From Eledone cirrhosa (taxonomy: Eukaryota), in contig OZ024743.1 in assembly GCA_964016885.1 (NCBI GenBank), forward strand, positions 9,672,001 through 9,736,000: a stretch of DNA of 64,000 nucleotides. Reading direction: 5' to 3'. The notes under the pieces are model-generated. The model saw nothing but the letters and a program-made list of their open reading frames with translations. It did not search any database and was not told where the DNA came from. Shown here piece after piece: positions 4,128-50,685 of the stretch. How positions within the stretch are numbered: position 1 is the stretch's first letter; each line of letters starts with the position of its first letter. The position numbers were made by a program, and so were the translations under genes.

Positions 4128-4398
4128 AATATAAGATCAAAAGATGGTTAAAGGAGTTCCATGTATTTTATTATGCGCATTTCAAAAACAAACATCATCA
4201 TGCAATAATATTTGTGTTTTCATCAGATAAAACAGGAGAACATGATATGAAGGCTAAAAAACACTTGTGGATAGTGCAGTTTTAAATCAACATCTTTTGA
4301 TCTTATATTATGTATACTCCAGTCCTACAAACTGTAGAGTGCTTCTTATCCGATATCTGCATTGCTTTATTGTACTACAATAAAACTCACCTCCTACA
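4126..4398. mobile_element. Short non-coding Penelope-like fold-back insertion in (TA)n
   Basis: Inverted repeat ataatataagatcaaaagatg (~4126) / catcttttgatcttatattat (~4291-4311), hammerhead on the minus strand, ~90-bp unpaired extension, and (TA)n on both sides. Confidence 0.7.
4165..4233 (-). ncRNA. Type I hammerhead ribozyme, intact core
   Basis: Minus strand: gttttat-CTGATGA-aaacacaaatattatt..tgatgatgtttgttttt-GAAA-tgcgca-TA-ataaaat. Stem I pairs, and the palindromic minimal stem III is typical of PLE hammerheads. Confidence 0.88.
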
Positions 4399-4529
4399 TA
4401 TATATATATATATATATATATATATATATATATATATATATATATATATATATATATATATATATATATATATAGAATAAGATAAATATATGTATATATA
4501 TAGATAAATATGATAAATACGCGGAAATA

Positions 4530-5690
4530 AAAACAACTATAAACCCCCATTTTCCTGCAGCAAATTGCATCTGCACAGAGGCTTTGAACAGAAGCCCCCT
4601 CACTTCACCAGATAACAAACCTTTATATGGACAAATTGACAATCATATTAACCACATATACCCTCATTTCCATGCAGCTTCCTTCTTCGTATATGTTTAC
4701 ATATGTATCTCCTATTTTGCATCTATGTATTTTATGTATTTTTTGTATTTTTTGTGTATGTTATATTTTGCATTTTTTTGTTTGTTTTGTTCCATGTGAT
4801 AGAGATATTAACTATGTATTCGCCTAACTACTACATTTCATACTGTAATTTACCCTCCGTTCTACTGTACGATACTATCGTTCAATATGTAGATAATATA
4901 TCTGTAACATTGATCCCACTTTCAAAACTTCTTACTATAACTTAAACATCTCCCTATTTATTAGTTATTATATGTACATATATTTTTTACTTACTTCAAT
5001 CTAGATTCTAACTTGAACATTTTTTTTAATTTTTGACTTTTGATTTTTAATTTTTAGTGTTAATTTCCAACTCTCATTCATAATTTCTACTGTGAAACCA
5101 TAATACCTAGAAATAAGTATATATTCTCTTAGCGGTTGATGGTCAATTCTACGGTCCATGCTTATTTGGGGTAGTATTGAGGCCTATTGACACTCATACT
5201 CTCCCACCCCACTAGTTTTCGGCCGGCTGCCACTAACAGGGTGGCTAGCATTAAGCTATAACCGTGTCATATTACAGGCCTGGATGGGGGTCATTGTTTC
5301 GTTGAGCGGGGACCTGCCTAGGCGAGTTTCGTAGAACTCTGCGGTAGTTGATGATCAACTTCCTTCGGACTTGCGCCTGCGCAGACCGGTGAAGTGAATT
5401 GAGACTCACAAGGGAACAGGCGAAGAACTCAAGAGCACATGTCGATTCAATTTGGATTGCCTCAGAAACATAACCTTATTATGTAACAAGCTGTCTGATG
5501 ATGTCATGGAACTGGGCGCACCAACCTGTGTGGCCACTGTTGTCATTGAAATATATATCACAGCATTATTATTAAAGGACTTTAACATCTGAAACTACTT
5601 CGCTTTTTCTTATTCGATATATAATCCGTCACTCCTGTGTGGAAAAAGTACGTTGAGTGCTTGAAATGAATTGCATCAATATTTATCTTA
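4530..5690 (+). mobile_element. Probable Penelope-like 3' region/pLTR
   Basis: Lies between (TA)n tracts and contains a minimal hammerhead plus the ACTC..GAGTGCT motif. No recognisable ORF; the 5' boundary is uncertain. Confidence 0.5.
5490..5564 (+). ncRNA. Type I hammerhead ribozyme
   Basis: gctgt-CTGATGA-(imperfect long stem II)-GAAA-tatata-TC-acagc. Predicted cleavage after ATC at 5559. Confidence 0.8.
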
Positions 5691-5717
5691 AGTATATATA
5701 TATATATATATATAAAT

Positions 5718-5777
5718 ATACACGGGTGTGTATGATTGTGTATAGAAGATTGTATTAATAAAAGGAATTCCAACTTA
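5718..5777 (+). repeat. ~60-bp dispersed repeat; inverted copy at 10641-10700
   Basis: tacacgggtgtgtatgattgtgtatagaagattgtattaataaaaggaattccaactt is the reverse complement of 10641-10700. Confidence 0.85.
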
Positions 5778-5973
5778 TATATATACATATATATATATAT
5801 ATATATATATATATATATATATATATATATACATCTATGCAGAGGTTATATTTAATTTGTTGGGATTCAACAAGCTTAAACATTTTTTATAACTGAAATA
5901 AAGCACTCAACAGTTAGTGGAGTAAATATACAATATATTAACAAATGGAAATTATATTTATAAAACCTTTTTT

Positions 5974-6037
5974 ATTTTATTATACATATTTCAAGGGCCA
6001 CCAATGCAAATTATGGTGCGCTTTCATCAAATAAAAT
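5974..6037 (-). ncRNA. Hammerhead ribozyme, core mutated (TTGATGA)
   Basis: Minus strand: attttat-TTGATGA-aagcgcacc..ggtggccctt-GAAA-tatgta-TA-ataaaat. Confidence 0.7.
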
Positions 6038-6180
6038 ACAATACAGAATTAGTTTTATAAATAAATATTGACATATCCTGGAAAAATCTAATATCTCCAC
6101 TATCCAGGAAGCTCCAACCGTTAAGGTTGTCTTTTTTCAGGGTATGTCAATATTTATTTATAAAACTAATTCTGTATTGT

Positions 6181-6244
6181 ATTCTATCTAATGAAAGCGC
6201 ACCATAATTTGCCTTGGTGGCCCTTGAAATATGTATAATAACAT
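6181..6244 (+). ncRNA. Hammerhead ribozyme, core mutated (CTAATGA)
   Basis: attctat-CTAATGA-aagcgcacc..ggtggccctt-GAAA-tatgta-TA-ataacat. Confidence 0.65.
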
Positions 6245-6317
6245 AAATATGGTTTTATAAATATAGTTTCCATTTGTATATTGTATATACATATACATTT
6301 GTATGTTGTATATACAT

Positions 6318-6428
6318 ATACATATATATATATATATATATATATATATATATATATATATATATAGTAATAATAATAATAATAATAATAATAATAATAA
6401 TAATAATAATAATAATAATAATAATAAT
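6318..6428. repeat. (TA)n(TAA)n microsatellite
   Basis: Directly visible. Confidence 0.97.
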
Positions 6429-48140: not shown

Positions 48141-48160
48141 ACTACTAATCGAGGCGTTTT

Positions 48161-48403
48161 GTGACCACGCTCGCCAACAAGACCTGGCAACTCCGTGAAC
48201 ACAACCAACAGTTCACCTTAAAATGGGATATACTTTCCAGCGCAAATGCATATCGGAGTGGTTTGAAGTACTGCAGGTTATGTAACCTTGAGCTATTTTA
48301 CATACTAAAATCCCAAAACAAACTACTTAACGATAGAATTGAACGATCATTATACTGCAACCACAAACTAAAAGCTAAATTCTCTCACTATAAAATAACT
48401 TAA
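48161..48403 (+). pseudogene. Inverted duplicate of the GIY-YIG C-terminus
   Basis: Translation identical to the end of 47391-47885. Confidence 0.9.
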
Positions 48404-48898
48404 CATTCGAACCCGTAACTACAACACCACTTTCTAGCTAACAACCTTCTCTTCTCCCCCACACTACAAGACAATACACTGCTTATCACTATACATGGTA
48501 ACTCAGTACAATTCCTAGATTACTACTACAAAACCAAAAGTTCACTCACCACATATACTTTATCTGTCCCCTCTCTACCTATATATCTCTCTCTACATCC
48601 ATTACACACTCTCTCTCTCTCACCTTTGACCTACCTCCCTCTCAACATCTATGAACCTGACCTCTGGGGCAATAAATAATTCCGACCTCAACTATCTACG
48701 CATCTCTCCAAAAGTAACTAATAAAACCCCTACCATAACATTTTGATTAAGATATCTACAAGCCACTCTCTCCTACTTCTCCAACCCCTGCATATCTTTC
48801 CTTCTCTCTCCTTCTTCCCTACTTTTCTCTCTTCCTGTTCCACTCTATCTTCCCCAACAACCCCACTTAAGGGTTTTTACATTGTATATTTACCATTC

Positions 48899-49010
48899 TG
48901 CTCTGAGGAAACAGTGGTCACAGCATTGGATATTCGAGTTCTGCAAATACTTGTGAATTTGCACGTAGCGGAACTAGGCTGCAGTACCACCGTAGAAACA
49001 CTTGTAAGCA
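48899..49010 (+). ncRNA. Type I hammerhead ribozyme with long stem II
   Basis: tgct-CTGAGGA-aacagtggtcacagc...gctgcagtaccaccgta-GAAA-cacttg-TA-agca. Predicted cleavage after GTA at 49006. Confidence 0.72.
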
Positions 49011-49377
49011 CACGGAATAAACTACCTTTTTATGATGTCTACCTGTTATTATTCATTCTTTATATACACTCCGGAATACTGAAGGATCAGGAACTAAGTT
49101 TCTTGAACAATTCTTCCATAACTCGTAGAGTAACCTCTTACCGTACGTCAACCATATCCAGTGTAGTAATTAACCATCACTACATCTTGGATAATCCTAT
49201 ACCTAATATATATATATATATATATATATATATATATATATATGCATAAGTTATATTTAATTTGTTGGGATTCCAACAAATTTAAACGTTTATAACTGAT
49301 ATAAAGCACTCGACAGATTACTGGAGTAAGTATTCAGTATATTAATAAATGGAAACTATATTTATAAAACCATAATT

Positions 49378-49440
49378 ATTTTATTATATATATTTTAAGG
49401 GCAACCAAGGCAGTCTTGGTGCGCTTTCATCAGATAAAAT
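49378..49440 (-). ncRNA. Hammerhead ribozyme (GAAA mutated to AAAA)
   Basis: Minus strand: attttat-CTGATGA-aagcgcaccaag..cttggttgccctt-AAAA-tatata-TA-ataaaat. Confidence 0.7.
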
Positions 49441-49540
49441 ACAAAATTTGTTTTTATAAATATTGACATAACCGTGGACAACAACCTCGACGGTTGGTTG
49501 TTTTCCACAGTTATGACAATATTTATAAAACAAATTGTGT

Positions 49541-49601
49541 ATTTTATCTGAAGAAAGCGCACCAAGACTGCCTTGGTTGCCCTTGAAATATATAACAAAA
49601 T
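49541..49601 (+). ncRNA. Hammerhead ribozyme (2-nt deletion in stem III)
   Basis: attttat-CTGAAGA-aagcgcaccaag..cttggttgccctt-GAAA-tata-TA-acaaaat. Confidence 0.7.
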
Positions 49602-50497
49602 AATTATGGTTTCATAAATATAGTTTCCATTTATTAATATACTGTATATATATATATATATATATATATATATAGATACCTAATATATGTAAGTTACCTA
49701 ATGGAGGTAGGTCCTAATAAAATAAAATCTAAGTATATTCTCTTCAATTATTAAGTGATCTAATACAGACAATGAGGCCTGAATTTATCTATCTCTAGTC
49801 TCACTCTATCTTAACCTGTTTGCAAACCTGCTGATACTTTCCATGATTTATTTCAGATAAAGTAATTGTTGATATCTTACTAAATTATGGATACGAAACA
49901 TCTAAATTGCTAGATGTCTATTAAAAGCTATAGTTCTCCAGATGGATACCTTTTCCGTAAAAGTGTTATCATGATTGAAATTTGACAATTTAGTGAAAAC
50001 TAATTTCCTTCACTCCCGTATTAATTAGGCTTGTGATTAGTCAGCCATAATTAAACATGTGAAAACATGCACACACACAACCATTCACACACACATTCAC
50101 GCACCACATGCACACACGTGCGCCCACGGACACACATAAACACACATATGACACACACACACATATTTATATATGAGTTAATTTCAATTTCTTACAGCCA
50201 TTACTGTTAAGGTTTATTGAGATCTAATTAAGGTTTATTGCGGTCAAGTTCTGAAGGTTAAGCCAATCTTAAGCTCAATATATCATTGTCTTTAATTGTA
50301 AACATGCCTTTTCCTTGTGTTGTGTCTATGCGCGGAGTTATTTCTAATGCCACCCCCACATATAAATTTACAAAGTTTTGAAGTTTTCCAATACTAGAAA
50401 CTGACATTAGAAATCGTCTGTCTAATCGCATATACAATTACTTTGACAATCTTCCTGCTTTCTTTCTGTATATATATATATATATATATATATATAT

Positions 50498-50685
50498 AAA
50501 GGTAGAACACTGGAAGGTAATATCCGTAGTGGTAGAGCACTCAGTCCATGAAACGAGTTTGGTAGAAGTAGTAACACAACAGTTAGTTCACCATACCGAA
50601 AATAATTGTTTCACCGAGCTGAAGATCCGCAAGGTGAAACAATTGTTCTCGGTATGGTCAACTAACTGTTGTGTTACTACTTCTA
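50498..50685. mobile_element. ~190-bp fold-back PLE-like mini-element
   Basis: Arms 50563-50615 and 50633-50685, a left extension, and (TA)n flanks. Confidence 0.8.
50613..50653 (+). ncRNA. Minimal type I hammerhead ribozyme, intact core
   Basis: accgag-CTGAAGA-tcc gcaa ggt-GAAA-caattg-TT-ctcggt. Confidence 0.88.

Follow-up and report, generated by a model that had tools for sequence, protein, structure and literature searches.

The 64,000-nucleotide stretch of Eledone cirrhosa DNA analyzed here (assembly GCA_964016885.1, contig OZ024743.1, positions 9,672,001 to 9,736,000 of the forward strand; hereafter the window, in whose numbering positions are given) contains a series of Penelope-like element (PLE) insertions that carry hammerhead ribozyme cores and a short hairpin motif. 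An earlier note, made from the sequence alone, had listed five ACTC...GAGTGCT sites and one GCTC...GAGCCCT site downstream of hammerheads. All six read as claimed at the positions given, and the five ACTC...GAGTGCT copies compare with 0.24 expected by chance, five or more being reached in none of 100 shuffles. In copies that continue into a next element the hairpin is found twice, as hairpin 1 (HP1) and hairpin 2 (HP2) in their order along the sense 5' leader, and nearly all mapped insertion ends lie a short, fixed distance before one or the other.

Each motif has a hammerhead core, which either precedes it in its own orientation or sits on the insertion's inverted arm. About 30-70 nt separate the predicted cleavage site from the hairpin (counted by eye in the 7482 and 50536 families), in agreement with the 30-75 nt proposed before. 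The tail-less inverted arm stops 6-9 nt before the hairpin when measured from the first target base, and the 2-7 nt noted previously is obtained when the TA microhomology is assigned to the element. Several of the hammerheads that had been read upstream are present as mutated cores, which are pointed out below.

In family F1, HP1 (4316..4344, +) belongs to a tail of about 4309-4397 that runs up to the (TA)n junction and ends at -8 from the HP2 of a read-through copy, and the tail-less inverted arm of this insertion (4129..4290, -) carries a minimal hammerhead (4179-4226) and ends at -7 from HP1. Family F7 has a minimal hammerhead core at 5495..5552 (+), HP1 at 5623..5662 (+) and a tailed end at 5692. 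The site had been given as 5631-5662, and its sequence is as read, but the ACTC at 5631 lies within the hairpin, whose base is probably at 5623, where the copy has a mutated ACTC (AATC) and relatives have ACTC. This base was reassigned after the junction data were known. Family F0b is represented by two HP1 copies: at 5901..5923 (-), in a fold-back insertion of about 5831-6296 with two mutated hammerhead cores (5988-6030, -; 6188-6230, +), and at 49304..49327 (-), with a tailed end at 49244, a tail-less arm end at 49644 and hammerheads at 49392-49433 (-, mutated) and 49548-49589 (+). HP1 of family F3 (50536..50558, -) is a variant with a 1-nt bulge, accompanied by a tailed end at 50499, a tail-less arm end at 50683 and a hammerhead at 50619-50640 (+).

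The 7482 insertion has an HP1 with a G-C first pair and a long inner helix (7519..7567, -) in a tail of 7482-7573, a hammerhead-like core at 7614-7639, a 5'-truncated open reading frame (ORF) of Hydra-clade type (8500..9600, -) encoding the end of the reverse transcriptase (RT), a CxCx5C linker and GIY-YIG, and a tail-less inverted arm (9601..10417, +) with a hammerhead-like core at 10348-10373 that ends at -6 from HP1. Another HP1 of this family, at 12092..12140 (-) with a tailed end at 12057, had been overlooked, and a tail fragment at 36833..36903 (-) retains only the 3' half of HP1 and ends at -6 from HP2. All three hammerhead copies of the family (7614-7639, 10348-10373, 12187-12212) read CAGAAGA (U4 to A) and keep a real 4-bp stem III; they may be inactive or a natural variant.

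The 46733 insertion consists of a tail-less arm (46734..47639, -) that has a hammerhead with a long stem II (46795-46891) and ends at -7 from HP1, a 5'-truncated Hydra-clade GIY-YIG ORF (47391..48152, -; PF01541, E 3.5e-4, below the curated cut-off and supported by full-length relatives), a hammerhead core on the tailed arm (48903..48999, +), and HP1 (49068..49135, +) in a tail reaching 49205, which is -7 from a variant HP2. This family had been credited with ACTCC only, and that reading has to be corrected, as a whole hairpin of the form ACTC-C...G-TA-GAGT is found at 49068-49131, with a 56-nt inner part and AACC replacing GCTY on the 3' side. A mini-insertion of the same family (50730..50854) has one tail-less end (-) and one tailed end (+) and lacks the hairpin itself. 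PLE insertions nest in each other's flanking (TA)n, which produces mixed-family clusters, for example at 49206-49243 and 50684-50729. An extra hairpin of variable sequence often lies 12-15 nt before the tailed end (F0, F1, F2 and other tails; e.g., 4365-4385).

Based on clade motifs, all seven ORF-bearing families are assigned to the Hydra clade of PLEs, so that the description of the motif as shared by unrelated PLE families does not hold. A single ORF with RT followed by a C-terminal GIY-YIG domain has 743-821 aa in F108, F0, F1 and 46733 and is present in pieces in F7482, F131 and F294; 46733 has intact natural copies that encode 784 aa. The seven show 43-49% identity to the first row of their alignment. 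DKT instead of DKG occurs in F108, F0, F1, F7482 and 46733 and GKT in the F131 copy, RWK/RWR is found in five families and RWT/RWI in F1, and GLYRDD, the CxCx5C linker and CxxC...E...N...CxH are present, while CCHH is absent from the motif-linked ORFs (by eye, against Neptune matches). Insertion into (TA)n and a hammerhead in the pseudo-long terminal repeat (pLTR), in some families with a variant core, agree with this assignment, and the same ORF motifs and (TA)n targeting are described for Hydra in PMC8557442. Leaders of different families show 41-62% aligned identity compared with 33-53% after shuffling, apart from the sister pair F0a/F0b (83%). Shared ancestry alone was rejected as the source of the motif, given that the leaders hardly beat a shuffled alignment; the motif is thus conserved against a diverged background, within one clade.

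The motif is predicted to form a bulged RNA hairpin, RCUC-(variable helix)-UN-GAGY. Covariation was assessed in 128 distinct instances, chosen by sequence and position only and falling into 45 clusters at 72% identity. In the register that leaves two bases bulged on the 3' strand, Watson-Crick pairing at the three upper positions is seen in 36, 30 and 22 of the 45 clusters, against shuffle means of 20.5, 15.1 and 11.6, whereas registers of 0, 3 or 4 nt pair at chance level; a 1-nt bulge is used by two clusters. The first upper pair is C-G in 19 clusters and U-A in 17, the first bulged base is U, and the inner part is 8-56 nt long, or about 100 nt in one array. G·U pairs exceed A·C pairs (18 vs 7), which favors sense RNA over cDNA. 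Covariation and G·U excess, both from related clusters, and the mismatch control described below indicate a conserved secondary structure on the RNA strand. The observation that the element matches no described motif was borne out in Rfam, where at gathering score there was no match and the sub-threshold matches were to microRNAs and small nucleolar RNAs, none of them at the hairpin of any motif copy. Identity with a look-alike, the bacterial CIRCE operator, was rejected; that operator has a fixed 9-nt spacer and no bulge.

Read-through copies place HP2 16-65 nt 5' of the ATG, at 68-99 nt after HP1 or, for the 46733 family, at 145 nt. Twin hairpins were present in read-through copies of 10 (sub)families, six of which were obtained via a double-motif search; four (F0a, F1, F108 and 46733) were obtained via protein or hammerhead searches instead and have the identical layout. 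A 615-nt non-coding, retrozyme-like head-to-tail array of at least 16 units (L302, G000:C1 13,090,763 onward) also retains both hairpins, the inner part of the second being the one of about 100 nt. Families related to this array have a CUGUUGA...GAAAC core about 200 nt upstream. A 58-nt satellite at G000:C1 ~14,233,000-14,267,000 (L184-187, L258-285) has a unit of one hairpin plus a TA-rich lead-in that resembles the start of the F108 tail and possibly originated by repeated re-initiation; its loci were left out of the twin-layout, junction, covariation and inverted-unit analyses.

A total of 327 (TA)n junctions were mapped on 19 natural read-through copies, with genomic junctions as a proxy for cDNA starts. 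Of these junctions, 137 lie within 14 nt 5' of HP1, 163 within 14 nt 5' of HP2 and 27 elsewhere. Three hundred are therefore close to a hairpin, where uniform placement would put about 9%, and 276 fall at -6 to -10; both counts are unadjusted, and shifting the HP1 base by 8-10 nt in two families after the data had been seen changes them to 304 and 279. The modal junction of the five well-sampled families begins at -6 to -9 and shares 2-6 nt of UA microhomology with the (TA)n target. TATA/ATAT sites lie mostly outside the hairpin windows in most references, and F108 has none inside. Tail-less ends fall before HP1 and tailed ends before HP2, which means that the PLE "tail" is the interval between the two hairpins. 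Inverted insertion units combine a tailed with a tail-less end in 74 of 75 cases, and in 50 of 51 at loci not chosen by motif, while an independent choice per end would predict about half. The distance from hairpin to cDNA start, as judged from these junctions, is fixed.

Patterns were counted in the window's own 3.0-Gb genome, with the reversed pattern as control. The motif has 73,818 matches (control 4,009), its G-C first-pair form 56,602 (6,900) and the hammerhead core 110,325 (4,487), while no enrichment is seen for the mismatched A·C form (16,922 vs 28,528). Seven of 77 strict motif matches sat in other repeats without a TA junction and were counted as background. Among the first 100 hammerhead-core matches, 54 run into (TA)n after 35-75 nt with no motif in between and 28 pass through the motif and then reach (TA)n, so there are two kinds of 3' end among hammerhead-bearing copies; the remaining 18, classified by eye, comprise eight tailed copies with a mutated or variant motif, one tail-less copy, one interrupted copy and eight unrelated sequences. 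Double-motif counts were not above control (4,728 vs 4,827; 3,387 vs 3,837), as satellites dominate them, and individual loci were therefore used instead. A scan of 81 metagenome stretches gave two loci, one stopping at its hammerhead (L326) and one consisting of the ORF only (L327).

Published Hydra consensi, inspected by eye in File S7 of PMC8557442, contain the hairpin in four of six cases, from coral, sea cucumber and copepod. Hydra-2_Amil (coral) and Hydra-2_Ajap (sea cucumber) have it downstream of the hammerhead, with G-C as the first pair; the copy in Hydra-1_Crog (copepod) contains a single mismatch, and Hydra-1_Ajap has two copies at its 5' start, spaced by about 61 nt. Neither Hydra-1_Amil, which is 5'-incomplete and tail-less, nor the complete Hydra-1_Obim showed a clear hairpin. 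GAGTGCT occurs 10 times in the 584,131 characters of that supplement, with no Naiad or Chlamys enrichment among the matches listed. The top GIY-YIG matches in the E. cirrhosa genome are Neptune-type, and a search for a local RCUC/GAGY hairpin in 30 GIY-YIG loci gave one chance-like match; judged by eye, 29 of these loci are Neptune-type, and in several of the 30 the first TA run did not mark the terminus. The exact motif is therefore Hydra-specific so far, although its principle may be wider.

Covariation and junction mapping together support the proposal that the motif is an RNA element in cis, linked to where insertions end and probably to where reverse transcription starts internally. We think it likely that HP1 and HP2 each bind the RT-endonuclease (RT-EN) and place an internal RT start about 6-9 nt 5' of themselves. 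The template would be an RNA with both hairpins downstream of its 3' untranslated region, either a read-through transcript or a hammerhead-cut circle, which are indistinguishable from the genome; a circular-template model via hammerhead cleavage has been put forward (PMC4209133). A protein dimer would nick both (TA)n strands, and each hairpin would dock one protomer and bring the UA-rich bases immediately upstream of itself to one of the nicked strands, so that one strand would prime before HP1 and the other before HP2. A start before HP2 would copy HP1 and give the tailed end, a start before HP1 would copy neither hairpin and give the tail-less end, and the two cDNAs would be joined head to head; the tail would correspond to the stretch of RNA that separates the starts. 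The layout of inverted units, where antisense cDNA is attached to the target 3' end on either side, implies that both strands prime; the one-of-each rule suggests a single RNA per event. The Poseidon PLE of Anolis (PAc) is reported to extend both strands in vitro from two internal starts that bracket the tail, with hammerhead cleavage dispensable and a dimer predicted (PMC11167929).

Several observations weigh against this proposal. The clusters share ancestry, and the shuffle test therefore overstates the significance of the covariation. Taken alone, the hairpins have low stability (-2.6 to -12.8 kcal/mol), and when whole leaders are folded freely the pair is not obtained in every case; such weak folding would be expected of a protein-stabilized element, yet it is also a caution. 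The first pair is missing from HP2 in the 46733 family, one HP2 copy carries A·C, and to these are added the mismatch in the copepod consensus, the two consensi without a clear hairpin, and the Neptune elements, which form tails without a Hydra-type hairpin. The 27 junctions away from hairpins, the post hoc reassignment of two HP1 bases, and the partial selection of loci by motif, including six families from the double-motif search, have to be counted here as well.

Alternatively, the hairpins may be RNA 3'-end processing signals, with a nuclease or terminator producing RNA ends a few bases 5' of each and target-primed reverse transcription then starting from the RNA end. Signals downstream of an RNA end exist elsewhere, such as the 3' box of small nuclear RNAs, and a positional link and covariation would be equally expected. 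We nevertheless consider processing unlikely, since two separately processed RNAs would not leave 74 of 75 units with both end types, and internal initiation on unprocessed RNA is shown for PAc (PMC11167929). It is quite improbable, in our judgment, that the motif acts as DNA, be it a double-stranded site or a cDNA hairpin that the GIY-YIG endonuclease cuts or resolves 6-9 nt away. The near-palindromic GAGYRCTY would suit such a site, tail sequence was reported to be needed for recognition by the Drosophila virilis Penelope endonuclease, as cited in PMC11167929, and Craig et al. 2021 (PMC8557442) ascribe the tail to endonuclease resolution; however, pairing and a fixed bulge are kept across inner parts of 8-56 and about 100 nt, which double-stranded recognition would not need, the excess of G·T over A·C on the sense strand disfavors first-strand cDNA, and tail-less ends lack any motif. 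A role of the hairpins in translation, stability or transcription, with ends set only by UA microhomology and protein geometry, would fit the position of HP2 only 16-65 nt before the ATG, PLE promoters reported in this region (PMC2377424) and the 2-6 nt of microhomology at every start, but it is very doubtful because many equal or better TATA/ATAT leader sites are unused, the hairpin distance is kept at both sites despite an HP1-HP2 spacing of 68-145 nt, and the non-coding array retains both hairpins.

The elements themselves are ordinary Hydra PLEs, while the twin-hairpin signal and its strict link to ends appear undescribed. Like the Hydra clade of Craig et al. 2021 (PMC8557442), they have the RT-GIY-YIG ORF motifs, (TA)n, a pLTR hammerhead, an inverted 5'-truncated copy and a one-sided tail, but their tails are 68-145 nt long compared with 30-40 nt there, and the available text of that paper attributes the tail to endonuclease resolution and describes no conserved tail structure. 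PAc (Frangieh et al. 2024, PMC11167929) resembles the E. cirrhosa elements in its two tail-bracketing starts, both-strand priming, AT-rich target, predicted dimer and a stem-loop near the start; unlike them, it belongs to a different clade and starts inside the ORF in an "AC-rich stem loop", and neither a signal that is conserved or duplicated, nor a fixed distance, nor a one-of-each rule is mentioned in the accessible text. The upstream ribozyme cores correspond to the minimal hammerheads of metazoan PLEs and non-LTR retrozymes (PMC4209133; bioRxiv 10.64898/2026.07.22.740005), for which the circular-template model would place both hairpins on one monomer. The hairpin, unlike such hammerheads, contains no ribozyme core and stands apart from them, 30-70 nt 3' of the cleavage site. 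A bulged stem that is recognized by an RT and fixes the start of copying is also known from the 3' stem-loops of stringent long and short interspersed elements (LINEs and SINEs), hepadnaviral epsilon and the template-flanking stems of telomerase, and in L1 twin priming two primers on one RNA lead to an inversion. The Hydra stem differs from these stems in lying 3' of the start, outside the region copied from its own site, and in being duplicated for two starts. The PLE tail, inverted copies, hammerheads and internal initiation are already known; in the literature covered (other than subscription papers, Repbase and picture-only supplements), the hairpin, its duplication, the fixed distance and the one-of-each rule are not described. 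Beyond the earlier note, the present analysis accounts for the tailed end by HP2, identifies a 2-nt bulge and an upper helix as conserved, and connects the motif with the PLE tail.

Neptune elements have another arrangement in place of this hairpin. Neptune B and D have one long stem of CUCGUG/CACGAG type, formed by ACUCGUG and a partner beyond the tail, CACGAG or CACGAAG, so that the second end sits inside the stem. Tail-less ends precede the 5' strand of this stem by 9-11 nt, in 13 copies of each family; tailed ends precede the 3' strand by 11-13 nt, in 12 copies of each. For Neptune D, 2,107 of 2,133 rows represented a microsatellite in the reference flank and were ignored. ACTYGTG opens Neptune-type tails 9-10 nt past the tail-less end (11735-11775, L366(-)1104, L367(-)1199, L370(-)2537), and its pairing partner in read-through copies, CACACGAG or ACACGAAG, lies about 12 nt past the tailed end. 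The window's own example (11735..11775, +) reads ACTT-GTGTG 10 nt past the tail-less end position and has no local GAGY partner. A third Neptune-type family (5707-5776, 10641-10710; L372(+)1226) has a perfect 10-bp long-range stem around the end, in which CUU/AAG replaces CUC/GAG. A search of the genome for a doubled Neptune motif gave satellites only. Tentatively, CUC/GAG stems in all endonuclease-bearing (EN+) PLEs might form a two-start ruler for a dimeric RT-EN that primes both strands from one, possibly circular, RNA, as twin hairpins in Hydra and as one enclosing stem in Neptune.

Other elements in the window include the 3' part of a LINE (6444-7481) that ends in (TAA)n, is abutted by the 7482 element and has zf-RVT as its only Pfam match; we take it to be of the restriction-like-endonuclease type. 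Three adjacent L1/Tx1-like elements with an ORF1 zinc knuckle and an APE-RT ORF2 occupy 17964-35000, and one of them keeps an open ORF2 of 1,156 aa (25638-29108). A short AT-rich fold-back lies between microsatellites at 53412-53554; neither hammerhead nor hairpin motif was recognized in it.

The choice of ends, the one-sided tail and the inversion of insertions are open questions in PLE biology, and the 2021 and 2024 papers ask for a mechanism. A duplicated signal at a fixed distance and the one-of-each rule make the origin of the PLE tail directly testable, and they provide a boundary rule for annotating Hydra elements in a genome with more than 100,000 pattern matches. If the proposed role of HP1 and HP2 is true, the tandem requirement of active copies gains a reason, in that the signals for starting a copy are situated outside the element, past its 3' end. 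PLE RTs are sister to telomerase, and their RNA recognition thus bears on telomerase origins; if all EN+ PLEs share the ruler, two short hairpins would be enough to turn any RNA into a two-ended insertion template, and the module of RT-RNA recognition would be old enough to be common with telomerase.

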